Positions 20,491-48,715 of a DNA stretch of 64,000 nucleotides are shown here, piece after piece. The position numbers were made by a program, and so were the translations under genes. Within the stretch, counting starts at the first letter, position 1. Every line of letters starts with the position of its first letter. Source of the DNA: an uncultured Phycisphaeraceae bacterium (GTDB taxonomy: Bacteria > Planctomycetota > Phycisphaerae > WQYP01); assembly GCA_964610975.1 (NCBI GenBank), contig CAZSYN010000007.1, forward strand, positions 26,150-90,149, in the 5' to 3' direction. Under the pieces are notes generated by a model. That model worked only from the letters and a program-made list of their open reading frames with translations. It was not told the DNA's origin and ran no database searches.

Positions 20491-20551
20491 TATCTTTTTC
20501 CCTGTCTGCTATACCACAGCAGGTACTTTAACAACTCACCTCAAGGCTTCC

Positions 20552-22644: not shown

Positions 22645-22674
22645 AAACTATCCTTACGCTATTTGATAAATAAT

Positions 22675-23067: not shown

Positions 23068-23097
23068 AGTGACCGTAATACCACATTTTGTGAAAGT

Positions 23098-23586: not shown

Positions 23587-23604
23587 GAGTTTTTGTATAG
23601 GACG

Positions 23605-24747: not shown

Positions 24748-24772
24748 TGCTAAACCATCGCTTATTCGGCAA

Positions 24773-27040: not shown

Positions 27041-29596
27041 TTAATTCTCCTTTGCGGTTGATTTTAAGTTATCATTTAGCTGAGAGTCTCTTCGCTGTCT
27101 CAAAATCTGAATCCATTTTTCACGAAATTGACGATCATCATCATTGAATATTCCGAGCTCTGCTCGAAAATGACCAAGAGATTGCTCATTAACCTTGGCA
27201 GCAAAGGCGTGACGATAAATCAGCGTTTTCAGGTAGCGTGCATTATTCGGCTGATATCTTAATTCTGCTGATCTTGCCGTTTCTAAAGAATTATTAAAAT
27301 ACTCTTGCAAAGCTGGCAAGGAAGACATTTGATTGAAAATCGCACTCGTTGGGATACCAAGGTCAGCTATGCAACTTGGGGTAACATCCTCAAGGTTCGT
27401 GCGGGGCCCAGAGATTTTATCTAACAATATGGCCGAGCAAATTGTATTGAAGGAATAGTTCCTTTCAATAGCGACAAGATATTTGCAGGGTCCCTCGACC
27501 AAGAATGTTTTGTACACACCGCCCCAAAAATCTCGAATCCGCGTACTCGCCAGCATTGGCGAATTCGGCATTACACCGTACGTTGATGGCAGCGAAGGGT
27601 AAATTCGAAGCATATAATCGCGCCAGCGATTTGCGGAGTTATGACCGTCCTTGTTCATAAAATACAATGAGAGACGGTGCGTCCCGGCCGGAACATCAAC
27701 ATCAATCCAAATATCGGGTCCCTGCACTGACATCCTGTAGGTTTCGCCGTGATCGTCAATTTCCGCTTGTCTTCGAGTTCCATCTTTTGGATCAATCATA
27801 CAACGTGGGTTCGTAGTGCTTTCCCAATGTAGCCACCGCCGAAGGGTGTCGTGATCTCGAAAAGCGGGGCTTATTTCCGCACGCACTTTATAAAAGGCTT
27901 CACCGCGGCCAACATAATGGTCCCAAGGCCACCCAGCACCGAACAGAACGGTATCGTCTAGACCATAGCGGCCAAGCCAATCTCCTTGAGTGCACCAGTC
28001 TTCTTTGTAATAAACTGCCCGAGGTCTGGCTGCAGGTATTGGTTTTCTGACTAATTGTCCGTTTTGTTCGACAAGAATTGGTGTAATATATTGCAATGTA
28101 CGGTCCCATACTCTATGGCCATACTCCGCTTCTTTACCAATCCTATCTTGTAAATATTTTGCAGTAGCAGTTAGGTCATCTGCACTTGGTATCTCTGCCA
28201 CGCTTGGCATCGATGGCAAACTAGAATAGTTATTAGTGGGACCTGATTGTTGTATTTTCGCCAATCCAAATTTTGAAACATATGCCGCTCGTTGTCGGCT
28301 GGGCATCTTCTTTGCAAATTGTACCAACTTACCGCCGTAACGCGCGATGAGTGGCTGCTTATCTGGTAATGGTTGAATCGCGGAAATGTAGCCATCCACT
28401 AATGTCATCCGCTCATCTTCCATGCTACGATATTTCGCGTTAGTGATGGGATCTATGACTTCATAGCCCTTCTGGCGGTAGGTCACCCATACGTAGCCAT
28501 TCTGGTCTGCTGCGATACCCGTGATATAGTCTTCCAAAAGTAAATCGGCAAGTTGTTCCTTGGTCGGTTCTTTCCAGTTTTTGGGCGGTCCTCCCCAAAG
28601 CCCCTTGACCTTGGCAGCATAATCTTTACCACGAATATAGTTCCATGTACTTCCGCCATCCCGACTGAAGGCGATACCTGTAGTTGTACCTACGCAAATA
28701 TTTCCATTGGGAAGAATCGTAATGCAGTTGATAAGATTGGTCGGCAGCCCTCGGCCAGTGGGTGCGGTGGGCATCTGGTCAGGTCCTCTGACGGTCCGCC
28801 AAATCTTGTAATCGCCCAAAGGAGTGCTGATCGCCAGACCATCACACTGGGTGCCGACGAATAGCGTTCCCTTTTTGTCAAACGCCAGAGCCTGGATTTG
28901 ATCCGAAGGCAAGCCATCCGCGCGGGTGTAATATGTCCAAGTGTATTTGCTGATCGAATAGCGGGAAAGCCCGGCATCGGTGGCGATCCAGACGTCGCCA
29001 TCCACCGGCGATGTAGTCATGGCAAAGACGCGCGGCCCGAGTGGACCAGTGACAACGTCGTAATTCTGCCATTTTTCACCATTAAAGACGCTCACGCCAT
29101 GATTGAGATGGCCGACCCATACACGGCCAAGATAATCACAAGTGATAGCGTACGCATAATTGTCAGCCAAGCCGTCGGCAACAGTGTATTGCGTCCACGT
29201 TTCCTTGCCGTCCGTGCCAACCTGATAATAGTAAACCCCGCTGTCCTCGGTACCGACCCACACGCCACCGGTGTAATTATATTGATTGGGTTTATCGCTC
29301 CGGTCACGATCCAGAGCGAGCCCCACAATAAACTGGGCCGGGCATTGCAGGGTGGTTTCCACTTCGGCACGCTGCTTTTCCAGCTCTTCACGTTCTTCGG
29401 GAGTGAGATCTGAGAGTTTTTTGTTGGCGGGTTTTGTGGAGGCAGTTGAGGACGACGAAGAAGCGGAACCAGCATTTTTTGAGGGGTTTGTTTTATTTGA
29501 AGTTGGTTTGGAGGTTTGATTTTGCGAATACACGTTGGCATTGGCAAGCCAAAGCATGCTCAAGGTAAGGGCAGCAATGATGCACGGACTACGCAC
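27041..29596 (-). CDS. Large secreted protein with two-component-regulator-propeller (Reg_prop / Y_Y_Y-like) repeats
   Basis: Signal peptide plus repeats such as 'YYYQVGTDGKETWTQYTVADGLADNYAYAITCDYLGRVWVG'. Confidence 0.55.
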   Translation of the reverse strand: MRSPCIIAALTLSMLWLANANVYSQNQTSKPTSNKTNPSKNAGSASSSSSTASTKPANKKLSDLTPEEREELEKQRAEVETTLQCPAQFIVGLALDRDRSDKPNQYNYTGGVWVGTEDSGVYYYQVGTDGKETWTQYTVADGLADNYAYAITCDYLGRVWVGHLNHGVSVFNGEKWQNYDVVTGPLGPRVFAMTTSPVDGDVWIATDAGLSRYSISKYTWTYYTRADGLPSDQIQALAFDKKGTLFVGTQCDGLAISTPLGDYKIWRTVRGPDQMPTAPTGRGLPTNLINCITILPNGNICVGTTTGIAFSRDGGSTWNYIRGKDYAAKVKGLWGGPPKNWKEPTKEQLADLLLEDYITGIAADQNGYVWVTYRQKGYEVIDPITNAKYRSMEDERMTLVDGYISAIQPLPDKQPLIARYGGKLVQFAKKMPSRQRAAYVSKFGLAKIQQSGPTNNYSSLPSMPSVAEIPSADDLTATAKYLQDRIGKEAEYGHRVWDRTLQYITPILVEQNGQLVRKPIPAARPRAVYYKEDWCTQGDWLGRYGLDDTVLFGAGWPWDHYVGRGEAFYKVRAEISPAFRDHDTLRRWLHWESTTNPRCMIDPKDGTRRQAEIDDHGETYRMSVQGPDIWIDVDVPAGTHRLSLYFMNKDGHNSANRWRDYMLRIYPSLPSTYGVMPNSPMLASTRIRDFWGGVYKTFLVEGPCKYLVAIERNYSFNTICSAILLDKISGPRTNLEDVTPSCIADLGIPTSAIFNQMSSLPALQEYFNNSLETARSAELRYQPNNARYLKTLIYRHAFAAKVNEQSLGHFRAELGIFNDDDRQFREKWIQILRQRRDSQLNDNLKSTAKEN

Positions 29597-34103: not shown

Positions 34104-34195
34104 TAGGCTGTTAGACTGTAGACTATTAGACGGTTAGGAAGAAGGGTGCCGTGTATGTGTGCCTAATAGCCTAACAGTCTGTAGTCTAACAGTCT
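34104..34195. repeat. IVS-like palindromic element, copy 1
   Basis: Arms taggctgttagactgtagactattagacggttagg and cctaatagcctaacagtctgtagtctaacagtctc. It fills the gap between two genes. Confidence 0.7.
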
Positions 34196-34210
34196 CTTCT
34201 GCCCCTCCTT

Positions 34211-36202
34211 TCAGTCAAACTCCATCTCGTCATCCTGCTCGGCCATATCGACGAGTTTCTTGGTATGCTTGGCCGTGTCTTCGGAGGCTTTGGCAATACG
34301 ATCGGCCATGTTCCCACCAGCCATCCCACGGGCCTCAAAAGCATTAAAGGAACCGACGACGCCGATGGTCTTCTGGGCAATCGTTGGCCCGAGTCCCTCC
34401 AGGTAATCCGGCATGGAGGGCGGCTCCTGTAAACGATCCGGTCCCTGGGCGTTCTTGAGTTGGCGTTTCTTCTTGGCTTCGGCGATGGACTTCTGCCATT
34501 CTTCGCGGGTCTTGTTTAGCTCATCCTGCGATTCCTGCATCTTTTTGGCGTACTCATCGTCCAGTTCTTTCTCTTTATCCTGGGATTCCTGGCCGATCTG
34601 GGTGAGCGCCGCTTCGTGGGTTTGGGTCTCATCAGCGCGTTCCTGCCGACGTTGCTGTTCGCGCGCCTGCAGGGCGGATTGTTTCTGCTTATCGATCTCG
34701 GCATTGGTGGCAGCCAAGTCCTCATCGGCCATCTTCTTGGCCGCATCCACATCTAGGCTTGAATCAAACAATCCCTGCAGATCCAGCAATCGCTTGGCCG
34801 TCCAGTTGATGGCGGTATTCCAGGCCTTCTGGAATCCGGCTGTAAAGCTGGTCCAGACTTTGGATAGGAATGCGGTCGTCTCAATCCAGGCGACTTCAAA
34901 GCCGTGCCAGACGATCTCGCAGGCCGCCAGTGCGCCATAAAACGCGTCATAGGCCATCTTGATAAAGAAGTTTCGGAACGTCAGCCAGACTGATTCGAGT
35001 ACCTGCACTCCCTTGATCCAGGCAATCTTCAAAGTGAGCCACAGAATCTGTGCCGCCAAGGCGATATCGCCGGCCGCCAGAGCATCGGAGATGCCTGCAA
35101 ATGCCTGCGAGGCAAATTCTGATAGCTCCCCAAACCGCTGCCCCAGCCAGTCCAGCGCCTTGCCACCCAGACCGGAGGCGTAAACCAGATACGCTCCCAG
35201 CGCCACCACGGCCGCCGTGACCAGGCCAATCGGAGTCAATAACCAGGCAATCACCGATCCTACCGCACCCAATACCGTACCGACCCCGGTGACAATACTG
35301 GCCAGCACGCCCAATACACCACCGATGAACACGATGGCCTTGCCTAATAGCATGAGCGCCGTGCCGGCGGCCGAAACCACCAGGGCAATTTTGAACACGC
35401 TGACCACCAGATCCTTGTTCTGCTTGATCCAGGTGGTTCCTTTGACCACGATGTCAATGAGAACATTGGCCCACTGCGTCAGCAGCGGTGCAATGGAAGA
35501 ACCGAGCGTATTGGCGAGCTTTTTGAGCACTTTCCACAGGGTAGAGAGGGTTTCTTCCAGTTCAGCGCCGATCTGGACGCCAGCGGCGGAGGCCGTAAGC
35601 CCCAGCCGCCGGGCCTGCTCCTGCATGGCCTCAATACCGGCCGCGCCTTGGGAGAGCATCGGGAGAAGAGACGTACCGTTGCGGCCGAAGATCGCCAGCG
35701 CCAATGCCGCGCGTATCGCTGGGCTTTGAATGCTGGCAAGTTTGTCGGCAATCAATTTGAACTGCTGGTCGGGCGACAGGCCGCGCAGGTCATCCACCGT
35801 CAACCCCAATTGCGCCAGTGCATCGGTGGCAGCTTTCGATCCCATCGCGGCGGCGGCAATGGTCTTTTGCATCTTGCGGATACCCAGTTCCAGCGTGTCG
35901 ATGTCGGAGCCGGAGATCTGAGCGGCATAGCCGAGTTCTGAAAGTGCCTCCACGGAGATGCCTGTCCGCTGGCTCATGCTGAGTAACTCTTTGGAGCCGG
36001 AAGCGGATGCCTTGGCAAAGGCAATCAGCGGCGCGGTAATGACTGACCCGGCAGCGGCCAGCTTTTTACCCCAGCCGCTGATGGCATCGCCGAAGGCCTT
36101 GAGCTTCTTGTTGGCGCTCTGCAGGCCGCGCACGAGTTTGGAATCGTTGACAAACAACTCCACATAGGCGGCCCCGGCGCGTATGGAACGGGCATCGGCC
36201 AT
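34211..36202 (-). CDS. Tail tape-measure protein
   Basis: 663 aa, Ala/Gly-rich, with coiled coil and TM segments. The N-terminus is typical of TP901-family tape-measure proteins. No SD is present; element copy 2 abuts the ATG. Confidence 0.8.
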   Translation of the reverse strand: MADARSIRAGAAYVELFVNDSKLVRGLQSANKKLKAFGDAISGWGKKLAAAGSVITAPLIAFAKASASGSKELLSMSQRTGISVEALSELGYAAQISGSDIDTLELGIRKMQKTIAAAAMGSKAATDALAQLGLTVDDLRGLSPDQQFKLIADKLASIQSPAIRAALALAIFGRNGTSLLPMLSQGAAGIEAMQEQARRLGLTASAAGVQIGAELEETLSTLWKVLKKLANTLGSSIAPLLTQWANVLIDIVVKGTTWIKQNKDLVVSVFKIALVVSAAGTALMLLGKAIVFIGGVLGVLASIVTGVGTVLGAVGSVIAWLLTPIGLVTAAVVALGAYLVYASGLGGKALDWLGQRFGELSEFASQAFAGISDALAAGDIALAAQILWLTLKIAWIKGVQVLESVWLTFRNFFIKMAYDAFYGALAACEIVWHGFEVAWIETTAFLSKVWTSFTAGFQKAWNTAINWTAKRLLDLQGLFDSSLDVDAAKKMADEDLAATNAEIDKQKQSALQAREQQRRQERADETQTHEAALTQIGQESQDKEKELDDEYAKKMQESQDELNKTREEWQKSIAEAKKKRQLKNAQGPDRLQEPPSMPDYLEGLGPTIAQKTIGVVGSFNAFEARGMAGGNMADRIAKASEDTAKHTKKLVDMAEQDDEMEFD

Positions 36203-36206
36203 GGGG

Positions 36207-36330
36207 ATTAGGCTATTGGGAAAGGCATTTAGGCTACAGGCTGTTAGACTATTAGGTCAGGCAATGTCATACACTCCTCTTTTTCCTAACAGCCTAATAG
36301 TCTGCAGTCTAATAGTCTTTCTCAATAGCC
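36207..36330. repeat. IVS-like palindromic element, copy 2
   Basis: Arms ...aggctacaggctgttagactattaggtcagg and cctaacagcctaatagtctgcagtctaatagtc. Confidence 0.7.
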
Positions 36331-36339: not shown

Positions 36340-37113
36340 TCAAGCGGTTTGTCCGGTTAACTCACGAATGTCCTCCACCGGCGAGGTCTTGATCGCCAGC
36401 CAGAACGACCCGCGCACGAGACTTTCAATCAGCACCCATAAGCCGACCGTCAGAATGACCCCGCCGGCCACCCACGGCAGCCAGTGCTGAATCTGGCCGA
36501 CGATCATGCAGGCAACCACCACAGCCAGACCACCGGCGCCGCCGGCAATGGAAATTCGGAAGTCGTGCATCAGGACGCCGACCGCCACGGCAATGCCGAT
36601 CGCGACAATCGCGAGCCATGAGATGGTGCGGAACATCGACTCCCACTTGCTGTTGGCGGCGGCGAGCTTTTTCTCCCAGGCGGTGTTGTCGTCGGCCCGG
36701 CCTTTTTTCTCTGTTTCCAGTGCGGCTGCTGTCTGCTGCATTTCCTTCTTGCCGGCTTGCACTTCGGATTTAAGGGTATCGATGTCCTTGCGGACATCGG
36801 CGAGCGCATTGCCCTGCGCCAGCAGTATCTGGGCGTTTGCAATAATGCGCGACCAGAAGGGATCCAGTGTGGGACGTACGGATTCCGGCGTGGCATCATG
36901 ACCAGCGCGCGCGGCAGTGGCGATTTCGGCTGCCGAACCGCTCACCTGCGTGGCCGCCGACGAGACCTTCTGGCCAATGTCATCAGCATGGCTATCGGCA
37001 TTGGACCAGGAGGATTCGGGCTGGGTTTGCGAGACGCAGCCATAAAAGGCGCCGATGAGCACTATTAATAAGGATAGGAATAACGTCAGTTTGAGAACAT
37101 CACGGTTCATCAA
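36340..37113 (-). CDS. Membrane protein with a coiled coil (N-terminal signal anchor, C-terminal TM helices), possibly a moron
   Basis: 'MMNRDVLKLTLFLSLLIVLIGAFYGC...' followed by multiple TM helices. It is inserted between the chaperones and the tape measure. Confidence 0.45.
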   Translation of the reverse strand: MMNRDVLKLTLFLSLLIVLIGAFYGCVSQTQPESSWSNADSHADDIGQKVSSAATQVSGSAAEIATAARAGHDATPESVRPTLDPFWSRIIANAQILLAQGNALADVRKDIDTLKSEVQAGKKEMQQTAAALETEKKGRADDNTAWEKKLAAANSKWESMFRTISWLAIVAIGIAVAVGVLMHDFRISIAGGAGGLAVVVACMIVGQIQHWLPWVAGGVILTVGLWVLIESLVRGSFWLAIKTSPVEDIRELTGQTA

Positions 37114-37843: not shown

Positions 37844-37853
37844 GGGAACTCCA

Positions 37854-38282
37854 GACTGTTAGGCTGTAGACTGTTGGACTGTTAGGAGAACACAAACATG
37901 CGTGATCACACCAAACTCACCGCTTTCCACAAAGCTGATGCTCTGGCATTGGCGGTCTACCAAGTCACGCGGAGTTTTCCGCGCGAAGAACAGTTTGGGT
38001 TAACCAGCCAGATGCGCCGCGCGGCAGTTTCCGTCGCGTCGAACATCGTCGAAGGCTGCGCTCGGCGTACCGAAGCTGATTATCTACACTTTCTTGATAT
38101 GGCATTCGGATCACTCCGTGAACTAAGCTATCAGTTGTCTTTAGCTTTCCGACTGGGCTACCAAACCCAGGAGACTTACGATCCAGTCCGATTACAGGCC
38201 GAAGAATGTTCCAAGGTGCTTGCAGCGCTGATCCGCTCTTTCCGCAGTGCCTAACAGTCAAATAGTCTGTAGCCCAACAGTA
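37854..38282. repeat. IVS-like palindromic element, copy 3, carrying a cargo ORF
   Basis: The left arm gactgttaggctgtagactgttggactgttagg is identical to copy 4. The right arm is cctaacagtcaaatagtctgtagcccaacagt. The arms flank the plus-strand four-helix-bundle gene. Confidence 0.7.
37898..38254 (+). CDS. Four-helix-bundle protein (PF05635 / TIGR02436; 23S rRNA intervening-sequence protein family; family of the DGR accessory protein Avd)
   Basis: 'FHKADALALAVYQVTRSFPREEQFGLTSQMRRAAVSVASNIVEGCARRTEADYLHFLDMAFGSLRELSYQL' matches the family consensus. The RBS GGAG is formed by the end of the element arm. It runs opposite to all neighbouring genes. Confidence 0.8.
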   Translation: MRDHTKLTAFHKADALALAVYQVTRSFPREEQFGLTSQMRRAAVSVASNIVEGCARRTEADYLHFLDMAFGSLRELSYQLSLAFRLGYQTQETYDPVRLQAEECSKVLAALIRSFRSA

Positions 38283-38288
38283 TGGGGC

Positions 38289-38744
38289 CTACGGCCCCAC
38301 GGTCTTCCACACCGGCGGATTAACCGAATACGTCGGCTTGGCCGTCACCTTCACACTGATGGCATCTTCCAGCGGTTCATCCCGGCTGAAGTCCGTGATC
38401 ATGCAGTCGGCCCACAAGCCTTGGTTGCCATTGGAGCCGGCGCCGGTGATCGGGCCATCCATCACGGCCAGGCCGATGATCGAATTATTAAAATACGCAT
38501 CCTTGATGGCTGTAAAGCCGGCGTCGGCCGTGTCCCACACCATCTCAAACTCAATGGTTCCTTCCTTGAGCGTGCCGGCGGTGGCCTTCCAGCCATTGTT
38601 GGCACGCGTGGTGACATCCGCTTCACCTTTCTGCAAGGTCAGCGTGACATTTTTGACGTTGGTCAGCTCGGTCCAGGTCGGCGTACCGCCGATGCCTGCG
38701 GCGCAGAAGTACAATTTTGCATCTAAGCCAAACTTTACACCCAT
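38289..38744 (-). CDS. Major tail (tail tube) protein
   Basis: The 151-aa size, composition and position match TP901-1 / lambda-V-like tube proteins. Confidence 0.6.
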   Translation of the reverse strand: MGVKFGLDAKLYFCAAGIGGTPTWTELTNVKNVTLTLQKGEADVTTRANNGWKATAGTLKEGTIEFEMVWDTADAGFTAIKDAYFNNSIIGLAVMDGPITGAGSNGNQGLWADCMITDFSRDEPLEDAISVKVTAKPTYSVNPPVWKTVGP

Positions 38745-38757: not shown

Positions 38758-38895
38758 ATAGACTGTTAGGCTGTAGACTGTTGGACTGTTAGGAGTAATT
38801 AAGACTATTAGACTACAGACGGTTAGGCGGTTAGGAAAAAAACCAAAGACGTCGTTGCCCGACCTAACTGCCTAACAGTCTGTAGCCCAACTGCC
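38758..38895. repeat. IVS-like palindromic element, copy 4
   Basis: Same 33-nt left arm as copy 3, additional units, and right arm ctaactgcctaacagtctgtagcccaactgcc. Confidence 0.7.
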
Positions 38896-39288
38896 TTACC
38901 TCACTGATCCGGCCCACATGGCAGGCAGACGGTCTTTTACTTGTTCCAGTGCCGGTCCCATGAACGGCCTCCGGTCGTAACGCTCGCGTTTGTACTTGCC
39001 ACCGAACTCATGCGCTGCGCCGGAAGTCCCGGCCACCTGACGATCCGGCCCGATCACCACGGACTGCTTATCTTTCACCACTGCGTATTTGATCGCGTTA
39101 CGCATCCGCCCTTTGCGTGTGTTAGGCGGCGTACCAGAAGGAGATTTCTTGGGCGACTTTTTGATCGAATGCCGCGCGATTAAACGTACGGCAGCGCCCG
39201 CGTGGCCGAGATTACGGATGTTGGCCTTTTTGGCAGCCCACCGAATCTTGCTGTTATCCGTCTTGATCTTGGCTTTGGCCTGAATCAT
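38896..39288 (-). CDS. Tail completion / virion morphogenesis protein (HK97 gp10-like, putative)
   Basis: Basic 130-aa protein upstream of the major tail gene. Confidence 0.4.
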   Translation of the reverse strand: MIQAKAKIKTDNSKIRWAAKKANIRNLGHAGAAVRLIARHSIKKSPKKSPSGTPPNTRKGRMRNAIKYAVVKDKQSVVIGPDRQVAGTSGAAHEFGGKYKRERYDRRPFMGPALEQVKDRLPAMWAGSVR

Positions 39289-39294
39289 GGTTAT

Positions 39295-39437
39295 GTGAGA
39301 CTGTAGGCTGTTAGGCTATTAGGCTGTTAGGTCAGACAATGACGCCTTGGACTCTTTTCCTAACAGCCTAACAGTCTGTAGTCTAATAGTCTTAATTCCT
39401 CCCAAAAGTCAAACAGCCTGTAGCCTAATAGTCTTCC
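39295..39437. repeat. IVS-like palindromic element, copy 5
   Basis: Arms gagactgtaggctgttaggctattaggctgttaggtcag and cctaacagcctaacagtctgtagtctaatagtc, plus an extra half-arm. Confidence 0.7.
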
Positions 39438-39889
39438 TACCGTGCCACTCTGTACGTGACCGTCAGCACGCTGGTAAAGACCTGCTTCTGCTCCAAATGC
39501 TCGGGCGAATAAATCGGAACATTTTCGGTTTTCACCCAGATCGCAGAACCTTCACAGCCATCCTTGCCGAGTACCAACCGCCTGAGACGCAGGTAATCGG
39601 CGATCTGCTCTGCCAAGGCCATCAGGGGATCCAGTTCTGATGTACTGATTGAGCTGATTTTCTTCTGAACCGCCACATCCACTGACACATCATGCTGATT
39701 GATATTGCGGCCCAAACTTGCAATCTCAATCTTTTTGGGCACCACTGTCACTCTTAAAGTTTTGAGCTGCGCCAGATCATATTCTGGTTTGTACTGACGC
39801 TCCGCCGTAAACCCCTGTGCAAATGTCCCGGCCTGCGCGGTATTGAGTACATTAACAATCGCATTGGCAACCGATACAACCATGCTCAT
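39437..39889 (-). CDS. Head-tail joining / tail terminator-like protein (hypothetical)
   Basis: Assigned by position in the head-tail module. Confidence 0.35.
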   Translation of the reverse strand: MSMVVSVANAIVNVLNTAQAGTFAQGFTAERQYKPEYDLAQLKTLRVTVVPKKIEIASLGRNINQHDVSVDVAVQKKISSISTSELDPLMALAEQIADYLRLRRLVLGKDGCEGSAIWVKTENVPIYSPEHLEQKQVFTSVLTVTYRVAR

Positions 39890-40164
39890 GACGATTCACC
39901 ACTTCTCTGCGGCCGGCGTGGCCGCTTGGGTTCCAGATTCAGACGAGAAATTTCAGCATCAATCTCTTCTTTGGTCCCGATCAACATCGTGTTGCTGGCC
40001 GGCGTACCGACCCGGCCTTCACCAGGTGCAAGCAATTCAATAACCTGCTTGCCATCATGAACCAGCACATATTTGTCCGGATAAACATCCGACTGCTTGA
40101 TCTCCACTGTGGAGGAAGCGATTTCCTGCATGTTTGGAATCCTTAATTGGTGGTGACGGTCCAA
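39886..40164 (-). CDS. Hypothetical small structural-module protein
   Basis: ORF with overlapping start/stop coupling to its neighbours. Confidence 0.35.
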   Translation of the reverse strand: MDRHHQLRIPNMQEIASSTVEIKQSDVYPDKYVLVHDGKQVIELLAPGEGRVGTPASNTMLIGTKEEIDAEISRLNLEPKRPRRPQRSGESS

Positions 40165-40715
40165 CCCCGGCTGATAAGCGTGTTTTTCAGTGCCACTCCG
40201 TTTGGATTGGATGGCGCAGCATTGGCGCCACTGCTCATATCCAAATACCCATTGGTCATGCCGCTGGCCACCATGTCGGTAAGTACCTGGTCAATCATGG
40301 CCTGCGGCAATGCACATCCCATCAGATAGAGATAGTGCATATTCGTACATCCCTGAAGATTGATAAAGGTCAAACTGGTGCAGAAATAGACATCCAGTTC
40401 GGTAATGTTCGTATTGCCGTGGGCATCCACTTCCAGCAGACTTTTGTTATTACCGGCATAGCAGCCATTGAGTTTGGGCAAACGCCAAATTTCCAGTTTT
40501 GTAAGCTGGCAACTGTATACATCCAGCGAAGCAAGATTTTTCAGGTCGTTCCACGGTAAGGTTGTGAGTAGCTGGTTTTCACAAATCAGTTCAGTCAGGT
40601 TCGGCATGTTGATACTATCGATTCGCTCAACAAACCCGGACCAGGGCAATACCAGCATGGGCCACTGTTCCAGTGGCGGATAGGTAATCAGAGGCTCAGA
40701 CTTCCATGCCGGCAT
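40143..40715 (-). CDS. Leucine-rich-repeat (LRR) protein encoded inside the head-tail module
   Basis: The LRR units 'LTELICENQLLTTLPWNDLKNLASLDVYSCQLTKLEI...LLEVDAHGNTNITELDVYFCTSLTFINLQGCTNMHYLYLMGC' are present. Its start overlaps the stop of the upstream gene. Confidence 0.6.
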   Translation of the reverse strand: MPAWKSEPLITYPPLEQWPMLVLPWSGFVERIDSINMPNLTELICENQLLTTLPWNDLKNLASLDVYSCQLTKLEIWRLPKLNGCYAGNNKSLLEVDAHGNTNITELDVYFCTSLTFINLQGCTNMHYLYLMGCALPQAMIDQVLTDMVASGMTNGYLDMSSGANAAPSNPNGVALKNTLISRGWTVTTN

Positions 40716-41047
40716 CAGCGAATCTCCACAAACAAGTCTGTAAAATTCACACCGGCTACCAGGTTCCGAGCAACGATACGTGCGCCAACGGCAATACCGC
40801 CGGGAATGACGATCTCCCGCCAGTAGTTGGGCGGGATCAAAAACGACTTCTCCTGGCCGGCGGCATCACCGATGGAGACCAGGGCGCCGCCGGAACCCAC
40901 GCGAATAAAGGCCAGCCGGCTCTCGTGGGTGACACTGCCTGAACTCGCGGTGGTGTAAGTATCACCACCGGTTGACCAGTAAAGCAGATCCGGCTTGCCG
41001 GCGCCCTCCAGAACAGGTCCGCCGACATCCACATGCATAAGACCCAT
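40715..41047 (-). CDS. Hypothetical head-tail module protein
   Basis: Start refined to the ATG at 41047 with a GGAGG RBS. Confidence 0.4.
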   Translation of the reverse strand: MGLMHVDVGGPVLEGAGKPDLLYWSTGGDTYTTASSGSVTHESRLAFIRVGSGGALVSIGDAAGQEKSFLIPPNYWREIVIPGGIAVGARIVARNLVAGVNFTDLFVEIR

Positions 41048-41051
41048 GACA

Positions 41052-41291
41052 TCAGCCTCCGACGATGATGAGTTTCCAAAGAGCCGACACTGCCAGCGAT
41101 ACCACGGCGCCGGCAATAACCCAAAGCACGCGCGAACGCGTGCGTTCAGAGGCTTCCAGCCGATCCAGCCGCGCATAAATACCCGGCTTGCCGTTGCCAC
41201 GGATGGCCTCATCGAGCCGATCAAGCTTGACGTGGATCTCGGCTAGTTCCTGCCGATGCAGGCGGTCCAGTTCTTCTTCAGCGTGTGTCAT
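41052..41291 (-). CDS. Small coiled-coil protein with a C-terminal TM helix
   Basis: '...RLDRLEASERTRSRVLWVIAGAVVSLAVSALWKLIIVGG'. Confidence 0.4.
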   Translation of the reverse strand: MTHAEEELDRLHRQELAEIHVKLDRLDEAIRGNGKPGIYARLDRLEASERTRSRVLWVIAGAVVSLAVSALWKLIIVGG

Positions 41292-41665
41292 GATGCGTCA
41301 ACCTGCTTCGTGTGTATCCGGTACGTTCGGCGATAAGGATCGCTGTAACGCCAGCAGGGCTCATCACCCGGCGCCATGACTTCGTACACATAAGAATGGT
41401 CGCCATCAGTCTCGGTGATGCGATCTCCGCGCTGGGGTGTTACCGCCTGGCCACCCAGCACCAAATCACTGGCCGTAATCAAAAAGTCTCGGCTCTCCAC
41501 GCGCAGTGCGGCGCCGGTGCCGTCATCTACTTCAAAGACGGTCTGTCCGATGGTGGCAGCGATTTGCAGTGTCTGCTCACCACGCTGATATACAACCATG
41601 CGCGACATGAATTTTGCGCGCTGATTCTGAAGCCAGTCAGATGCTTGTTGAAGAAGATCAGGCAT
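41288..41665 (-). CDS. Head-tail connector / adaptor protein (gp6-like, putative)
   Basis: 125-aa protein placed after the capsid and decoration genes. Confidence 0.4.
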   Translation of the reverse strand: MPDLLQQASDWLQNQRAKFMSRMVVYQRGEQTLQIAATIGQTVFEVDDGTGAALRVESRDFLITASDLVLGGQAVTPQRGDRITETDGDHSYVYEVMAPGDEPCWRYSDPYRRTYRIHTKQVDAS

Positions 41666-41820
41666 AGGCTGTTGAAACAGACTATTAGACTACAGGCGTT
41701 TTGGCTGTTAGGAGAGAAATCAATCGCACAAATGTATGACCCAACAGTCAAATGGCCTGTGGTCTAACAGCCTTTCCTTCTGACCAAACAGTCAAACAGT
41801 CTGTAGCCTAACAGTCTCCT
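41664..41820. repeat. IVS-like palindromic element, copy 6
   Basis: Arms ataggctgttgaaacagactattagactacaggcgttttggctgttagg and ccaacagtcaaatggcctgtggtctaacagcc, plus ccaaacagtcaaacagtctgtagcctaacagtctcc. Confidence 0.7.
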
Positions 41821-41822: not shown

Positions 41823-42152
41823 TCACTGGCTCAGCCGCGCACGAACCTTTTCATCATCATCCGAGGCCGCGCGAACCGTTTTGCCGATTCCCTTATTGCC
41901 TGCGGAAGTCGTGGTCGCCTGCTGCGCGGTGGCATTCCAATAAAGAATTGCCCCAACCGCGATGGCCGTACCAGCGCCCTTGGCCTTGGGAAAATCAAAA
42001 ATACCATCCACGACCAGACCGCCGGTGGTATTGGCCGGAATCGGCCGAGCGGCCACACCCACCAGTTCCCCCTGTACCACTACCGATCCAGCAGCAACAT
42101 CCGCAGCGGGGGTGTAATCAATCGCCGATCCATCACTGACAAAAGTCGCCAT
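41823..42152 (-). CDS. Head decoration / DUF2190-like protein (putative)
   Basis: Gly/Ala-rich 109-aa protein directly after the capsid gene. Confidence 0.4.
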   Translation of the reverse strand: MATFVSDGSAIDYTPAADVAAGSVVVQGELVGVAARPIPANTTGGLVVDGIFDFPKAKGAGTAIAVGAILYWNATAQQATTTSAGNKGIGKTVRAASDDDEKVRARLSQ

Positions 42153-42208: not shown

Positions 42209-44314
42209 TTACGCTTCTCCTTTGTTCTTCACGCCCGCGCGCGGATCCTGCATCGCCACGCCAAAATCGTGATAACCGCGCACCGTGATGCCCAGCACAT
42301 TGGGATTGGCTTCAATCGTTTCAATGGTGGGCGACTCATTACCATTCAGGAACGCGACTTCAATTAGCGGCAGGTCGTTGGCATCCGCCAGCAGGTACCA
42401 GGCCTTCTGGCTGGAGCCAGCGTACCGGGCATTGCCCAGGTATCGACTGACTTCCACCCGGTAGGCATTCTGGTGCGGGTTGGCGATCGGCATTTTGGTA
42501 TTGCTGGTCGTATCGCGGATTTCCGTCGACTTATAAAGCTGCGTCGCCATGGCCGAGAGTGACGTCGGCACCAGCAATACTTTCGGATCGACGCTGATCG
42601 GCTTGCCATCCGAATCGACCTGATCATTAAACGCCTGCACTGCATTACTCAGGGAATCAATTCCCAGCACCGTACCGGCGCCGGAGAGATAATTCTTATT
42701 GGCGGCGGCGAAGATGGCAGCATTGTTCAGGAAGATCGTCCAGAACACATCATTGATCTTCAGACCCGACCCACGGCCGAGCTTGCGCGGCACGGTGGTG
42801 ATGGCGCCCAGATCATCATTGATGATGTCGCGCCGTTCAATCGTCAGCATCAGGCCGTAAGTGTCGGCCTTGTTGGTGTAGATTTCATTACCGAGGGTGC
42901 CGTGCTTAAGCTCACCGCCGGGCGCAATCAATTCATACTGATCGGTACCGATCAAGCGGTAGCTCGTGACGGTCTTAAAGTCCGTCACACTGCGGACCGC
43001 ACAGATATTCCGCCAGGTCCGTTCAACCGAGAAGAATCCGTCGAGCAGGAACTTATTACCGACATTCGAGAGAATCGGCGCGATATCAATCGTGGCATAT
43101 CCCGCCTCAATCTGCGCTTTGCTCGGGAAGGCCATCGCCATGATGGTATGCGGATCACTGCGGAAGGTGCGGCCGATGTAACCATTGACCATCGCCGCTT
43201 CCACCATCAGGTCCTGCAGGCTGATTCCGTTCCGGAATCGTTTGCTGGCGGCATCCAGATCCTGCTCGCTGCAGTGGTTTCCCGGTTTGGATAAACCTGC
43301 CGAGAGCAGACAGGCCGCCTCCAGCATGGCCGATGTCGTCGGTCCAGGCGAAGCAAAGCTAAAGCCCATCGGCGCACCCATGACATTGCCACCCGCCACG
43401 GGCGCCTTGGGCCGACTGGCGCGCAGAACTTCCAGTTCCGTCTTGGTCTGATCCCAGCCATCACGAATCGCCTGCGCTTCAATATCTGTACACTTGCCAT
43501 TGCAGATTCGGCGAATGCCGGCGATGCGGTTGGTCTCCGCAAGCGCTTCGGCGCGAATCTGATCCATACTGCGAACATCCGCTGCATTGACCGCAGATAC
43601 GGCGGCCGCCTGAACCGGCGGAGCGGCAACAGCGGTGCCAGCAGAACCAGTACCTGTCGACGTGCTGGCGGATGTTGAATTGGTAGTGGTGGAAGTGTTT
43701 GTGGTAATACCGTCCATCGTGGCGGTCTCCTTTTCATGTACTGTATCGATCTGCGACGCGGCCACCTGCGCAGAGGTGTTGCCGTCGGCGCCCAGGTCTA
43801 CAAAACTGATCTCGCCCAGTGTTGCCTTGCGGACAACATTCACCGGGCCCTCAAACGTCCGGCCGTTGACAATGGCCTTCTGGCCATCTTTGACGAATTC
43901 AAACTCTTCCACTGACGCGCCAATACTGGCCTGCCAGGGGAAGCCATTCTTGGAACTGACGACAATCTCCCGCGCCGCCGGCGTATCCCGTGAGACCACG
44001 CCAGCCGCGATGAGTTGCCCGGCCTCTACGGAGATGGCATCAGTATGACCGACACCCGCACCCGCGCTGGCATCATGGCCAAAGCGGATCGGCCTGTTTT
44101 GACTCGGGATCGCCAGACCTGCCAGATCCACAATCACCGGGAAGCGCCAGCCGGCGATCCTCATCGGCCCGCCGGTGTAGGCCACCATGCGAAAGCGCGG
44201 CAAGGCTGGCGCAGCACCGGTTTCGCCCGCTGGCATGCCTGCCTCAATTTGAAAGCTCGCCAGCAGCGCCAGCGGACCGGCCTGATTGTCATTCTTCTTG
44301 GGCGACTGACTCAT
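42209..44314 (-). CDS. Prohead protease – major capsid protein fusion (HK97-fold)
   Basis: Start at 44314 (MSQSPKK) with an AGGAGA RBS. The N-terminal ~200 aa is protease-like (HD... and S.G segments). A Thr/Ser-rich linker follows, then a capsid-like C-terminal ~450 aa. Confidence 0.6.
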   Translation of the reverse strand: MSQSPKKNDNQAGPLALLASFQIEAGMPAGETGAAPALPRFRMVAYTGGPMRIAGWRFPVIVDLAGLAIPSQNRPIRFGHDASAGAGVGHTDAISVEAGQLIAAGVVSRDTPAAREIVVSSKNGFPWQASIGASVEEFEFVKDGQKAIVNGRTFEGPVNVVRKATLGEISFVDLGADGNTSAQVAASQIDTVHEKETATMDGITTNTSTTTNSTSASTSTGTGSAGTAVAAPPVQAAAVSAVNAADVRSMDQIRAEALAETNRIAGIRRICNGKCTDIEAQAIRDGWDQTKTELEVLRASRPKAPVAGGNVMGAPMGFSFASPGPTTSAMLEAACLLSAGLSKPGNHCSEQDLDAASKRFRNGISLQDLMVEAAMVNGYIGRTFRSDPHTIMAMAFPSKAQIEAGYATIDIAPILSNVGNKFLLDGFFSVERTWRNICAVRSVTDFKTVTSYRLIGTDQYELIAPGGELKHGTLGNEIYTNKADTYGLMLTIERRDIINDDLGAITTVPRKLGRGSGLKINDVFWTIFLNNAAIFAAANKNYLSGAGTVLGIDSLSNAVQAFNDQVDSDGKPISVDPKVLLVPTSLSAMATQLYKSTEIRDTTSNTKMPIANPHQNAYRVEVSRYLGNARYAGSSQKAWYLLADANDLPLIEVAFLNGNESPTIETIEANPNVLGITVRGYHDFGVAMQDPRAGVKNKGEA

Positions 44315-45851
44315 CGTCATTCTCCTGATCCACAGGTGTACTTGCTGGGGTTGAGGTCGTCGGCGTCGCAACCAACCCGAGTTCCTTCATCAACGCCATT
44401 TCCTTGGCTCTCTGGCGCAGCTCAGCTTCCCAGTCGCGTCCCTGGCGCGCATATTCATAGGCAAGGGTGGTGGTATTGCTGGCCAGGCGCGTGGCCTGAG
44501 CATTGGCTTCCTTGGCCGGGTCTACATGTTCCTGGCCATCCCAAAACCACTGGTGGAGAGGCAAGGCTGTTTGGCTGCAGGCTGTTTGACTGTTAGCTTC
44601 GCCTAACAGCCCAACAGTCAAACGGCCTAACAGTCCTTCCACTAATCTGGCTTCGCTCAACCAAGCCCGCAAAATCGGATCGAGTACCACGCGACCCATA
44701 TGCGCCTGATCGACGCGGATCGATTTGTAATAGACCTGATGATCCAGACGTCCCGACGCGTAGTTGTAGCCCGATGAATTGCCCGCCGCGACATTAAACG
44801 GCATGTTCAGGCAGCGAGAGATTTCGTTGAGGATTTCCTTTTTGAATTCACCGTAAGTCGTCGTCGGCTGCTCGGCGGTGACCTGACCCAGTTTCCATCC
44901 ACCGGGCAAGACCGTTGCCATGCGCCGTTCCAACTCCACGATATCCATCGGTTCAACTGGATCGGCCTCGCCGTTGGCGGGCGCATCGGTATACAAAACC
45001 GCTGCAAAATCCGCAGCCGTCTCCGCTGCCGCAATCACCGCAAGCGTGTAACGCCGCAATTGGGCAAACAGTGGCAGCGCGGCCGTGATCTCTGGAATCC
45101 CCCGGCTCTGGCCGGGACGATCAGTACGGTAATAATGAATCATCGCACTGGCTGGGATCCGATCAAAGCCAGAAAGCCACGATCCGAAGAGTGAGTTATC
45201 ACCTGGATGCGCACGAAGCAAATGATATTCAACAGGATTCCCGTAGTTGTCATACACAATGCCATCAGTCAGGCTGTTAGGCTGTAGACTGTTAGACTGT
45301 TTGTGCCTAATAGCCAAACGGTCTAAAAAGCTAACAGCCTCCCACGGCGTGCTGATCTGGTCCGCTTCAAAGAGCTTCAGATCCAGCTTCACCGGCGAAT
45401 CAATCATGGGATTGGCTACCAGCATGCCAAAGACTTCACCCGATTCGGCGCGCGAAGCGCGCATGGTGCGGAGCTTTTCAGGGAGCCGAATTGCCTCCGC
45501 CCAGTGCATAAACTCCTGCTCGGCCACCCGGTTGGCTGCATCCTGCTCGGTGAGCATCTGCAAGCGCGGGCCGGTACCGACGACATCATTAGCGAGCGTG
45601 AGCACAATCCCACGGGCATACGAGTTGTTCGCTACCTCGTAGCGCGCACGAGCACGCAAGGTCTTGCGTACGGCCGCACTGTTGGCGGCGTTCGCCGAGA
45701 GATGATCGGCGGCGGCCCAGTGGCGACGGTTATCGTCATTGGTGGCCGCCGCATCATAGCGGCCGCCAATCCGCATGGGCACGTGCACAAAGCGCGTGAC
45801 CCGCTGCACCGATTGCGCCGGCAGAAGTTTTTTGAGTAGTCCCATCATCAC
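44289..45851 (-). CDS. Portal protein
   Basis: The 520-aa size, position after the terminase, and the '...RYEVANNSYARGIV...' N-terminus are typical of lambda/HK97-type portals. It contains two in-frame repeat-element insertions. Confidence 0.7.
   Translation of the reverse strand: MMMGLLKKLLPAQSVQRVTRFVHVPMRIGGRYDAAATNDDNRRHWAAADHLSANAANSAAVRKTLRARARYEVANNSYARGIVLTLANDVVGTGPRLQMLTEQDAANRVAEQEFMHWAEAIRLPEKLRTMRASRAESGEVFGMLVANPMIDSPVKLDLKLFEADQISTPWEAVSFLDRLAIRHKQSNSLQPNSLTDGIVYDNYGNPVEYHLLRAHPGDNSLFGSWLSGFDRIPASAMIHYYRTDRPGQSRGIPEITAALPLFAQLRRYTLAVIAAAETAADFAAVLYTDAPANGEADPVEPMDIVELERRMATVLPGGWKLGQVTAEQPTTTYGEFKKEILNEISRCLNMPFNVAAGNSSGYNYASGRLDHQVYYKSIRVDQAHMGRVVLDPILRAWLSEARLVEGLLGRLTVGLLGEANSQTACSQTALPLHQWFWDGQEHVDPAKEANAQATRLASNTTTLAYEYARQGRDWEAELRQRAKEMALMKELGLVATPTTSTPASTPVDQENDDESVAQEE
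44571..44650. repeat. IVS-like palindromic element, copy 7 (in frame within portal)
   Basis: gcaaggctgtttggctgcaggctgtttgactgttagc / ttcgcctaacagcccaacagtcaaacggcctaacagtcc, translated as 'LLGRLTVGLLGEANSQTACSQTA'. Confidence 0.65.
45261..45333. repeat. IVS-like palindromic element, copy 8 (in frame within portal)
   Basis: aggctgttaggctgtagactgttagactgtttg / gcctaatagccaaacggtctaaaaagctaacagcctcc, translated as 'EAVSFLDRLAIRHKQSNSLQPNSLTDG'. Confidence 0.65.
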
Positions 45852-46223: not shown

Positions 46224-46418
46224 TTATGCCCGTTCGCGCGTAGGGATGCGCCGGCCACAATAACGACACTCACGCAGACGCATGATGCAACCCGGCCGGG
46301 CACGCGTATACACAACATCCAGATGCCGGCAACCGCACTTGGGACATGCAAGACCACGCGGAACGGGTGCATGGTCCGTCCTTGCGGAATTTTCGTTGAT
46401 GGGTAATGGGTCTCTCAT
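46224..46418 (-). CDS. C4 zinc-ribbon protein (NrdR / Ogr-Delta-like finger), translationally coupled to terminase
   Basis: 64 aa. 'CPKCG...VVYTRARPGCIMRLRECRYCGRRIPTRE' carries two CxxC pairs ~22 residues apart. It has an ATGA overlap with the TerL stop and a GGAGG RBS. Confidence 0.55.
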   Translation of the reverse strand: MRDPLPINENSARTDHAPVPRGLACPKCGCRHLDVVYTRARPGCIMRLRECRYCGRRIPTRERA

Positions 46419-48715
46419 CTCCGCCTCCCCTGGATATCGGATAAACGCACGCGCGCTTTGCGTGGCGCTTCCTTGCTGTCCGTGCCAAACAAGACCGCTC
46501 CCTGCATGCTCGCACCGACCGCGCAACCGACCAGACAATCCAGCCAGTGGTTATCCAGGCCCGGCGTGCGGAGTTTCCATTCATCAAGCTGACGGCCACG
46601 ACCGGATGTCTTGATGCAATACTCGGCGGCCAGATGCTCTGACACAAGCCGATGATCTGTACCAGCAAAGAGTGACAGACATCCCGGATCACCCATCGGC
46701 ACCGCCAAGCGTGCATGCACAAAACTCTTCCAGTAGTTGGTATCAATCAGCGCATACCGCACAGCGCGCTTGCCCTGCAGGTTGGGGATGCGCCAATGCA
46801 GCCCGGTGCGATCTCCCTTGCGCGGCTTGTAATCAGAGAACGGCGTACTGGCCGCGCCGACATAACGCCCGTGGCTGGGCATCACAATGGCCGAGTGTGC
46901 CGATTGTCGGCAGAACTGATACACCACATCGGTACTGTTGCCCCAGTTGGCGTCAATCAAACACCGCTCAATGGTCATCTCGGCGCCATCATCACGCTGG
47001 AACTTACGGGATAAATGCACTGCCGTCAGGGCCTCCAGCCCAGCGTAGATCGCCCCTTCCTGGCCGGTGCCGCTATGAACCAACATCAACGTCCGCCGAG
47101 CATCACGTAATGTAAAATACGCTCGCTTCTGGTCCGGATACTCCCCATAGTCCAGCACGTACCCAGTAAAATCATCCTCCCAACCGCAGATCAGCCAATA
47201 CAGCAGCGTCCCCTGCACATCCACAAACATCGTCAGATGGCTCACGCCGACCGGCAATTCGCCACGCTTCATACCATTGGTCTTCTCGGCAATCGTGTCC
47301 GCCGAGAGCATGTCGGATCCGAGCGTTTCCTCCGGTAGCGGTTCATTTTGGTATTCAGCCCAGAACGCGGCGTCCCCCTGATCCAGCTTGAGATTCATGG
47401 CATGCTGAATGGCCGAGAGTTCATCGGGATTGTACCGATGAGACCAGGCGACTTTGGCTCCCGCATCCATATCGATCTGGTTGGCATGATAAAACTCAGT
47501 CGCTTCGCCGACGCCACGGTCATTGCGCTGACCATCCGCACGGAGCTGGGCATACTGCTGCCAGAGTTTTTCGTTAGCGGGGAAAACATACACCATCTTC
47601 GTGCGCTGGCCCTGCCACTGCGGATGTTTATCGCGATTCAGGATCCGATCCGCCATATCATCCGGTCTCACGACCGTCAGCGTCATGAGACCAGCAATCT
47701 TGCGTCCCGGACCCGCCAACCCCAAAATCGCACCCGCCAGGATCTGCTCACGCGTGACACACTGGGAGGGTGACCGTGCCGATTCATCGGTTTGAGGATC
47801 ATCCAGCAGCACCAGCGACGGGCGCACCGTCTTGCCATCGGCCCGCTTGTGCTTCATGCCACGGATACGACCGGTGATGCCGGCGACCTTAATCACCGCA
47901 CCCGAGGCCGCGCTCCCCGGTATCGTCGGCAGCGCAATATCCTTGGCCGTCCAGCCAATATGGGTGCGCGCCCCCTGGTAAAGCTGCCCGGCTGCGCGCT
48001 GGTGGATCCCTTCGAGCGCCCGGATGGGCCCACAGGCCTCAGAAAAATCCTCCTCCAGCAGGTCGTTATTCTCCAGTTCCGATTTGATCGACTCGAGCAT
48101 ATCCCCGGCATGCTCTTCGTCCGCGCCGATCAGGGCCACAAATTCCCGGTGACCGTAGAGTAGCGCCCATAGGCAGGCAGTCTCGCACAAGGTGGTTTTG
48201 CCCGAGCCACGCGGCATGGCCATCGCAAACAGACCGCCATTGAGGACTGCCTCTTCAATCTTGGCAATGACTTTGAGGTGATCGTCCGACCAGGCCAGAT
48301 GAAACGTCTGTAGAAAGTACAACTCGCAAAATAGACGGAAGGACCGGCGGCAACGTTCCTTACGTTCCAGGTCCACCGGCGCATGGATCCAGTTCTCCTG
48401 GGTAATATCGCGCGAGGATTCCGACATCCCCCGGCTGCGCGCATTGACCGCCTCTTTGTGCGCCGCGTAATTCTTCTCCGTCCACCCCGGCTCAAAGGAT
48501 TCATGCCGCGCATGAAACAGCCACGCCGCGTAACGGACAAGATCGATACGTCGCCCATCACCGATGCGGTACGCCGCTCGGTTCAGGTGCCGATACACCA
48601 CATGCGGCCCAGCCACCTCGCCCAGCGGCGTGGAGTTCAGCAGCCGCACGACCTCGGCCACGCGAAGTTGTCGGGGATCCATTTTCACCTGGATTGCATC
48701 TCCCGCATCAGCCAC
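46415..48715 (-). CDS. Terminase large subunit with a ~200-aa N-terminal extension
   Basis: Walker A 'AMAMPRGSGKTT' and Walker B-like 'LVLLDDPQTDE', followed by a C-terminal nuclease region. Confidence 0.8.
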   Translation of the reverse strand: MADAGDAIQVKMDPRQLRVAEVVRLLNSTPLGEVAGPHVVYRHLNRAAYRIGDGRRIDLVRYAAWLFHARHESFEPGWTEKNYAAHKEAVNARSRGMSESSRDITQENWIHAPVDLERKERCRRSFRLFCELYFLQTFHLAWSDDHLKVIAKIEEAVLNGGLFAMAMPRGSGKTTLCETACLWALLYGHREFVALIGADEEHAGDMLESIKSELENNDLLEEDFSEACGPIRALEGIHQRAAGQLYQGARTHIGWTAKDIALPTIPGSAASGAVIKVAGITGRIRGMKHKRADGKTVRPSLVLLDDPQTDESARSPSQCVTREQILAGAILGLAGPGRKIAGLMTLTVVRPDDMADRILNRDKHPQWQGQRTKMVYVFPANEKLWQQYAQLRADGQRNDRGVGEATEFYHANQIDMDAGAKVAWSHRYNPDELSAIQHAMNLKLDQGDAAFWAEYQNEPLPEETLGSDMLSADTIAEKTNGMKRGELPVGVSHLTMFVDVQGTLLYWLICGWEDDFTGYVLDYGEYPDQKRAYFTLRDARRTLMLVHSGTGQEGAIYAGLEALTAVHLSRKFQRDDGAEMTIERCLIDANWGNSTDVVYQFCRQSAHSAIVMPSHGRYVGAASTPFSDYKPRKGDRTGLHWRIPNLQGKRAVRYALIDTNYWKSFVHARLAVPMGDPGCLSLFAGTDHRLVSEHLAAEYCIKTSGRGRQLDEWKLRTPGLDNHWLDCLVGCAVGASMQGAVLFGTDSKEAPRKARVRLSDIQGRRR

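Follow-up and report, generated by a model that had tools for sequence, protein, structure and literature searches.

What is a leucine-rich-repeat (LRR) gene doing among the genes that join the head of a phage to its tail? The window analysed here, a 64,000-nt stretch of DNA, holds a prophage that runs from about 20.5 kb to beyond 63 kb, and the LRR gene sits in a siphovirus-type late operon on its minus strand (Pfam, PHROG). The initial annotation offered two kinds of role for the product: a neck, whisker or fibre component that binds a protein or glycan, or an injected effector. The first of these is the one that the comparative evidence favours, through the fibre-type cargo found at the same slot in related phages and through relatives of the protein in baseplates and beside tail fibres. 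Our preferred answer, held with modest confidence, is that the protein is an optional virion-surface adhesin, the binding subunit of a three-gene cassette; its presence on the virion, its point of attachment, the roles of its two partner proteins (o110 and o81) and its ligand are what we infer from the comparisons that follow.

The first step is the identity of the protein, which had been read from the sequence as an LRR protein with at least five repeats. The ORF at 40143-40715 encodes 190 aa and contains the sequence cited in the initial annotation letter for letter. The profile search that the initial annotation proposed as a check gave LRR matches in both Pfam and the PDB. The LRR_4 family matches at 31.6 bits against a gathering cut-off of 27 (E=1.8e-7), and a profile of 16 homologues run against PDB sequences has internalin J (3bz5) as its top match (E=5e-15), followed by Leptospira LRR proteins, SHOC2 and InlB. 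An AF2 model made with the homologue alignment (mean pLDDT 94.1, pTM 0.88) has parallel strands at residues 20-22, 42-44, 63-65, 84-88, 106-110 and 128-130, a period of 21-22 residues that gives five full solenoid turns. In a Foldseek search of the PDB with this model, the top 50 matches listed are all LRR proteins, with TM-scores up to 0.65. An LRR_4 match above threshold and a curved solenoid with one parallel strand per repeat are what defines the LRR superfamily, and the five turns agree with the repeat count of the initial annotation. In the LxxLxLxxN register the “N” position is taken by Q48, C69, N90, C112 and C134, forming a Cys/Asn ladder. The model also has extra short strands at 95-97 and 117-119, which are 11 residues out of phase and give each turn a second strand on its other face.

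The protein divides into three parts: an N-terminal cap, the LRR turns and a C-terminal domain (Table 1). The cap is modelled at a pLDDT of 61 for residues 1-10 and about 90 or more afterwards, and its first residues vary with the type of gene that lies upstream (MPAWK after o110, MPYIQEP after an 84-aa leader). A signal peptide is not evident at the start of the protein (MPAWKSEPLITYPP), which has no hydrophobic signal, and Pfam and PHROG scans recognised neither a known virion-anchoring domain nor a trimeric fibre shaft. The turns carry a stripe of nearly invariant tyrosines (Y67, Y86, Y110, Y128 and Y130; entropy 0-0.5 bits). The C-terminal 55 residues are the best conserved part of the family (0.76 bits), with the motif GxNAAPSxPxGxALKxxLISRGWTVxTN, and no Pfam model matches them, either here or in the domain-bearing relatives scanned.

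Where the gene lies can be stated plainly. The order of the late operon is gpA-type large terminase, lambda-type portal, protease-capsid fusion, Phage_cement_2, Phage_H_T_join_3, o79, o110, the LRR gene, o81, o150, Neck1/tail completion, tail tube, chaperones and tape measure, and this Pfam/PHROG order bears out the earlier placement of the LRR gene within the head-tail module. The block 39437-41665, in which it lies, is uninterrupted and co-directional. The initial annotation also had the gene joined to both neighbours by overlapping stop and start codons. That is so upstream, where the o110 stop and the LRR start overlap in TGATG with base 40715 common to both. Downstream, the next gene (o81) most likely starts at ATG 40131, which is preceded by AAGGA and lies 11 nt past the LRR stop codon; a TTG start at 40164 is less likely because relatives show an 8-nt gap at this junction. 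On that side there is thus a spacer and no overlap, and the coupling is still tight. A scan for promoter-like sites, which covered the sigma-70 type only and is weak for Planctomycetes, gave none at the LRR region, and terminator-like sites around the gene were no more frequent than expected by chance. A moron would be expected to have its own promoter and terminator and, in many cases, a distinct orientation and composition; this gene lies on the operon strand, overlaps the gene upstream and leaves an 11-nt spacer downstream.

Base composition dips over this part of the operon. The GC content here is about 0.47-0.49, against 0.57-0.62 just upstream, and the dip (0.47-0.52) covers the LRR gene, o81 and the core gene o150. 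Horizontal acquisition, as judged from GC, was considered and rejected, since the dip is common to the core gene o150.

Table 1. Features of the prophage in the window, listed along the minus-strand late operon; the last three rows give repeats and regions outside the coupled block
Feature	Position	Strand	Remarks
TerL	46415-48715	-	gpA-type large terminase
Portal	44289-45851	-	lambda-type
Two further palindromic repeat pairs within the portal ORF	44563-44620, 45270-45324		in frame
Protease-MCP fusion	42209-44371	-	
Cement protein	41823-42152	-	Phage_cement_2
Phage_H_T_join_3 head-tail joining protein	41288-41665	-	Pfam E=2.3e-49
o79	41052-41291	-	small; coiled coil and C-terminal hydrophobic helix; predicted membrane-type
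o110 (leader gene)	40715-41047	-	110 aa; mechanical ORF extends to 41224; stop overlaps LRR start
LRR protein gene	40143-40715	-	ATG start; 190 aa plus stop codon; 16 homologues at 33-100% identity
LRR N-terminal cap, residues 1-37	40605-40715	-	MPAWK start; invariant W18, P24, N36 (homologue alignment)
Five 21-22-aa LRR turns, residues 38-135	40311-40604	-	strand periodicity
C-terminal alpha-beta-alpha-beta domain, residues 136-190	40146-40310	-	AF2: H138-150, E157-160, H172-182, E186-189
o81 (partner gene)	39886-40131	-	81 aa; beta-rich N-terminus, helix, basic tail KRPRRP
o150 (core neck-module gene)	39437-39889	-	bounds the variable site on one side; relatives in IMG/VR: at least 414
Neck1/tail-completion protein	38896-39288	-	PHROG 5 and 26, E about 1e-4; synteny
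Inverted repeats of 145 nt	38760-38904 / 39290-39434		78% complementary; flank the Neck1/tail-completion gene
Tail tube	38289-38744	-	
Four-helix-bundle ORF	37898-38254	+	between tail chaperone and tail-tube genes; palindromic repeats on flanks
257-aa predicted membrane-type protein	36340-37113	-	hydrophobic helices; between chaperones and tape measure
Tape measure	34211-36202	-	
Palindromic repeat gaps	34104-34196, 36222-36319, 37852-37897, 38246-38284, 38759-38897, 39289-39435, 41678-41818		
Distal tail region	21622-29596	-	beta-propeller-type proteins; low GC (0.41-0.48)
Left prophage edge	19080-21397		IS256/Mutator-family transposase (E=2e-114) and Rce1-like CAAX protease

Several other features of the prophage were noted along the way. 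Palindromic repeats of 8-nt units (AGACTGTT/AGGCTGTT) occupy nearly every intergenic gap of the structural operon, and most of the gaps they fill hold one forward and one inverted copy, which could form a long hairpin. They bound the coupled block 39437-41665, with none inside it, and related phage loci have next to nothing of this motif (two single matches). The two pairs within the portal ORF coincide with insertions of about 10 and 20 aa that are missing from three homologous portals; they resemble the in-frame palindromic elements known from Rickettsia. The 145-nt inverted repeats on either side of the Neck1/tail-completion gene could mark an invertible or mobile segment or could simply be intergenic palindromes. 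The four-helix-bundle ORF has a 23S_rRNA_IVP match (E=5e-35) and a bAvd-like match below the family cut-off. A link through this ORF to a diversity-generating retroelement was rejected on those two results and on finding no template/variable-repeat pair; the Pfam scans that were run, a non-exhaustive set, gave no reverse transcriptase. In the distal tail region, Reg_prop repeats occur in an 851-aa ORF, PD40 in a 340-aa ORF and a weak PQQ_2 match in a 380-aa ORF, and these beta-propeller-type proteins are candidate primary receptor-binding proteins; in related phages the corresponding region encodes LRR proteins. To the left of the prophage lie host genes and an IS256-type transposase.

If the LRR gene lies so firmly inside the operon, is it a structural gene of the phage like its neighbours? 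Relatives were selected through the core neck gene o150 and not through the LRR gene, and the best 80 of at least 414 in IMG/VR were surveyed. The LRR gene is present in 1 of these 80. In 6 of the 63 loci with both flanks readable the module is compact and insert-free (H_T_join_3-(o79)-o150-Neck1-tube), and the remaining 57 carry other cargo: 41 downstream of o150 (spanning 0.4-3.7 kb), 11 upstream and five on both sides. On its other side, the variable region is bounded in most relatives by the Neck1/tail-completion gene. The cargo genes mostly point the same way as the operon and lie close together, and the cargo often opens with an 84-aa protein (c0, 37 of the 80 loci) or a 120-aa protein (10 of 80). 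The position is thus a hypervariable hot spot for present-or-absent accessory cargo in this phage lineage, which comprises Phycisphaerae prophages and IMG/VR contigs. The initial annotation had held that this was not a typical moron site, a statement that these counts do not bear out for this lineage. A late-operon neck gene that is present in some relatives and absent from others is also what is expected of an accessory neck appendage. For annotation there is a warning here: location inside a head-tail block is not the same as being a core structural gene.

The same counts bear on one account of the protein that its position would otherwise invite, namely a role as an assembly factor (chaperone or scaffold) in neck formation or tail joining, after which it would not be kept in the particle: its place among connector genes and its tight coupling fit such a role, but it varies in repeat number and at surface residues in the manner of a binding protein, and the core neck evidently assembles without it (LRR gene in 1 of 80 relatives, 6 of 63 insert-free), which makes this account very improbable.

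What fills the slot in other phages also says something about function. Recognisable domains were found in five of about 20 alternative cargo proteins scanned, and all five are typical of fibres or adhesins: two Ala/Gly/Ser-repeat proteins matching PHROG 892 “tail fiber protein” (E=4e-22 and 3e-13), a collagen-repeat protein of 591 aa that has tail-fibre matches in PHROG, a protein with Lcl_C (PF07603, E=1e-18) and one with a weak right-handed beta-helix match. The rest had no match.

The LRR gene does not enter the slot alone. In the close family o81 follows it directly in 35 of 35 LRR-carrying loci (29 from IMG/VR, four from Phycisphaerae/Planctomycetes genomes and four further metagenome contigs, sets that overlap), and among the 80 loci selected with o150 it occurs only in the single one that carries the LRR gene. 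The order leader-LRR-o81 is kept in the 33 loci in which the upstream side is visible. The leader is an o110 homologue in 15 of these and the unrelated-looking 84-aa c0 in the other 18, and its stop again overlaps the LRR start. In the window and in loci L001, L002, L009 and L010 the cassette lies on the upstream side of o150, and in the remaining 29 readable loci on the downstream side; it therefore moves as a unit and behaves as a mobile cassette. The gene before it, o79, is semi-core and lies outside the cassette, as it is found in many relatives that have no LRR gene.

The partners themselves give few clues by homology. The leader o110 is modelled as a jelly-roll beta-sandwich, a fold that cement and turret proteins of phages and CBMs also have; it had no match in Pfam or PHROG and nothing significant in the PDB profile search. 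No Pfam, PHROG or PDB match was found for o81, and o150 likewise gave none in Pfam or PHROG and nothing significant in the PDB profile search. Comparison of the three leader families (o110, the 84-aa c0 and the 120-aa c2) by hhalign gave probabilities of 0.13, 0.007 and 0.05, which are not significant. The only hints of kinship are an N-terminal motif, M-x-K-R-x-I-x-S-x-D-V, common to the long o110 homologues and c2, and a common “IGD..GQ..P..P.NY” motif. It was also observed that cargo proteins encoded after the 84-aa leader often begin with M-(P/G)-Y or MMGY (MPYIQEP, MPYTPID, MPYRFSA, MGYGSIV, MGYWGIA, MMGYRVT), both in unrelated cargo (L066, L075, L078, L130, L109, L094, L124 and L085) and in L005-type LRR genes; this could be a short docking motif or chance. 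Locus L005 belongs to a related prophage of Planctomycetales bacterium ZRK34 (CP050848.1, at around 5.50-5.52 Mb).

How the LRR protein varies among its relatives is consistent with a binding surface. Its 16 database homologues are mostly 190-191 aa, and a 280-aa form has about four additional turns inserted within the repeat region. Across the homologues, positions predicted to be exposed have an entropy of 1.59 bits against 0.77 bits for the predicted core, exposure being assigned by repeat register and not by coordinates; exposed positions thus vary twice as much as the core, and this, together with the variable repeat number (190-aa and 280-aa forms), is counted as evidence for an adhesin. 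Between close relatives the LRR segment is the most divergent region: it is 74% identical between P0002 and the window protein (flanks 87-89%) and 54% identical for P0005 (flanks 68-80%), with the genomic contexts of P0002 and P0005 taken by inference. On a 404-kb NCBI contig, where adjacency of the two genes is likewise assumed, the leader is 93% identical to that in the window and the LRR protein 64%. Second copies outside the window were seen on an NCBI contig of 335,615 bp (leader P0208, 86% identical; LRR P0002, 81% identical), and the source genome is likely to contain a pair of related prophages whose LRR genes have diverged.

LRR proteins had been called rare in phages, which holds for cultured phages and not for uncultured ones. 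With the 190-aa protein as the query, tblastn found no relative among 50,697 INPHARED phage records, and for a distant LRR relative searched by tblastn against deposited phage genomes, the matches were confined to generic LRR genes of Listeria and Leptospira phages. Pattern scans, on the other side, located homologue loci in four Phycisphaerae/Planctomycetes genomes and 53 in IMG/VR, PHROG has two phage LRR families (phrog_7816 and phrog_6688), and BFVD holds many phage LRR models, which are uncharacterised.

The C-terminal domain links the small protein to much larger ones. In a full HMMER scan its last 58 residues matched 422 cluster representatives (E<=1e-3), in which the match lies mostly at the extreme C-terminus and is sometimes present in two to six copies per protein: in P0066 a collagen segment precedes a tandem array of the domain, and P0054 consists of three solenoid-plus-domain modules. 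The comparison with LRR tail proteins of metagenomic phages, also proposed at the outset, was run: the distant IMG/VR relatives that combine LRR repeats with this domain are larger tail proteins. One of them (L043, 602 aa) opens with DUF2612, a PHROG “baseplate protein” match (E=1.6e-31), and continues with the repeats and the C-terminal domain; its gene has a baseplate wedge gene on one side and a tail-fibre gene on the other. L052 comes from a phage that is related to the window prophage in its tape measure and distal tail proteins. There the gene for a 429-aa LRR protein begins where a 1003-aa collagen-like tail-fibre gene has its stop codon, and a further tail-fibre-like gene comes next. 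L041 combines Laminin_G_3, LRR and the C-terminal domain.

Put together, these observations suggest how an adhesin cassette might work. The genes o110, LRR and o81 would be expressed with the late structural operon; the leader o110, and possibly o81 too, would dock the LRR protein on the particle, either on the capsid or close to where head and tail join. The solenoid, with its tyrosine stripe amid variable exposed residues, and the C-terminal domain would then bind a host-surface protein or glycan, this binding would bring about reversible primary adsorption, and the tail-tip proteins would perform the irreversible step. Some observations count against an adhesin: most alternative cargo at the slot is without annotation, the LRR protein is small and has neither a recognised fibre shaft nor a known anchoring domain, the comparison of the three leader families gave no significant sign of homology, and the conserved tyrosine stripe could be the interface for a conserved phage partner such as o81. 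A hypervariable slot in a structural operon can also hold non-structural genes, as the anti-CRISPR loci of Mu-like phages do.

The alternative that survives best builds on that last point. It would make the locus a non-structural accessory set with a moron-like function: LRR protein and o81 would be made late or in the lysogen and would bind a protein of the host or of a competing phage within the cell (anti-defence or superinfection exclusion), never reaching the particle. A present-or-absent distribution at a hot spot suits such a set, as does a protein with neither a recognised virion-anchoring domain nor an evident signal peptide; the conserved concave tyrosine stripe suggests a conserved protein ligand, and the GC content is lower than just upstream. 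Yet the low GC is common to o81 and the core gene o150, the LRR gene runs in the operon direction, overlaps its upstream neighbour by stop and start codon and showed neither a promoter nor a terminator of its own in the scan, the recognisable cargo at the slot is of fibre type (collagen, PHROG tail fibre, Lcl_C), and elsewhere the same LRR and C-terminal-domain module is fused to a baseplate protein and found within tail-fibre clusters. We therefore regard this alternative as rather unlikely.

The injected effector of the initial annotation fares less well. Here the protein would be packaged inside the particle, ejected with the DNA and directed at a host target. LRR effectors are a known class (YopM and IpaH), the gene lies among head-completion genes, and the basic tail of o81 could accompany DNA. 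However, nothing speaks for ejection specifically: the relatives of the module are external tail parts, a rigid solenoid would need to pass through the tail channel, and the alternative cargo consists of long fibre-like proteins, whose ejection is unlikely. The account as a whole is quite improbable, and the surface adhesin stays the preferred reading.

Accessory appendages at the neck or head are well known from other phages. The collar and whiskers of T4 (fibritin, wac) and the head fibres and neck appendages of phi29 are non-essential or accessory, are attached to neck or head and aid adsorption or its control, and in T4 the wac gene adjoins the neck genes. These appendages, compared here by description only, are trimeric coiled-coil or beta-helical fibres without LRRs. 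The closest documented analogue of the LRR cassette is NPS of the lactococcal 936-group (Skunavirus). In 936 phages an accessory nps gene upstream of mtp gives rise to a neck collar with whiskers, as seen by immunogold EM (PMC4759559); like the LRR cassette it is an accessory late-operon gene, lies just upstream of the tail-tube gene and sits in a reported rearrangement hot spot (PMC4759559). There are multiple differences. First, NPS is a single gene, whereas the cassette has three genes and an LRR subunit, with no sequence or domain relationship between them. Second, the virion location has been shown for NPS, whereas that of the cassette is predicted. Third, the hosts are Gram-positive bacteria in one case and Planctomycetes in the other.

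The fold itself has its nearest likeness in InlJ, InlB and the Leptospira LIC proteins, which share the 21-22-aa repeats and the cysteine ladder at the Asn position and use their solenoid for surface binding, as proposed for the window protein. The window protein is not an internalin: it lacks a signal peptide, the internalin N-cap, the Ig-like inter-repeat domain and a cell-wall anchor (LPXTG or GW), it matches only LRR families in Pfam, it ends in a different 55-aa alpha-beta-alpha-beta domain, and it is phage-encoded. Other, uncharacterised phage LRR proteins (PHROG 7816 and 6688, cyanophages S-CAM8, S-SKS1 and S-TIM5, Nonlabens phage P12024S and the DUF7941-LRR proteins of Goslar) also have LRR solenoids with a presumed role in host recognition, and many of those from metagenomic phages share the C-terminal domain of the window protein. 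They are multidomain proteins of 300-1400 aa in tail or baseplate regions, in contrast to the minimal 190-aa form in a neck module. LRRs in putative host-recognition proteins of phages have thus been noted already, for example in Goslar; new here are a predicted minimal LRR adhesin in a neck-module cassette, the architecture of that cassette and the recurring C-terminal domain.

A broader and more tentative idea, which may well not hold, is that the neck slot is a general plug-and-play dock used throughout a large lineage of uncultured Planctomycetes phages. The universal dock for interchangeable adhesins (LRR, collagen fibre, beta-helix, Lcl_C or Ala/Gly/Ser-repeat fibre) would be a leader with a small, conserved jelly-roll (o110, the 84-aa or the 120-aa protein). 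The LRR version would have the added 55-aa C-terminal domain, perhaps a new module of phage fibres for ligand binding or oligomerisation.

To our knowledge, almost nothing is known about how Planctomycetes phages recognise the unusual cell surface of their hosts. The locus flags a small conserved C-terminal domain to which no Pfam model gave a match and which is met again at the ends of phage fibre-like proteins. If the adhesin reading is true, this locus would mark primary-attachment genes of a widespread uncultured phage lineage (at least 414 relatives of o150 in IMG/VR), and it would offer the LRR solenoid as a phage adhesin in a minimal, tractable form of 190 aa.
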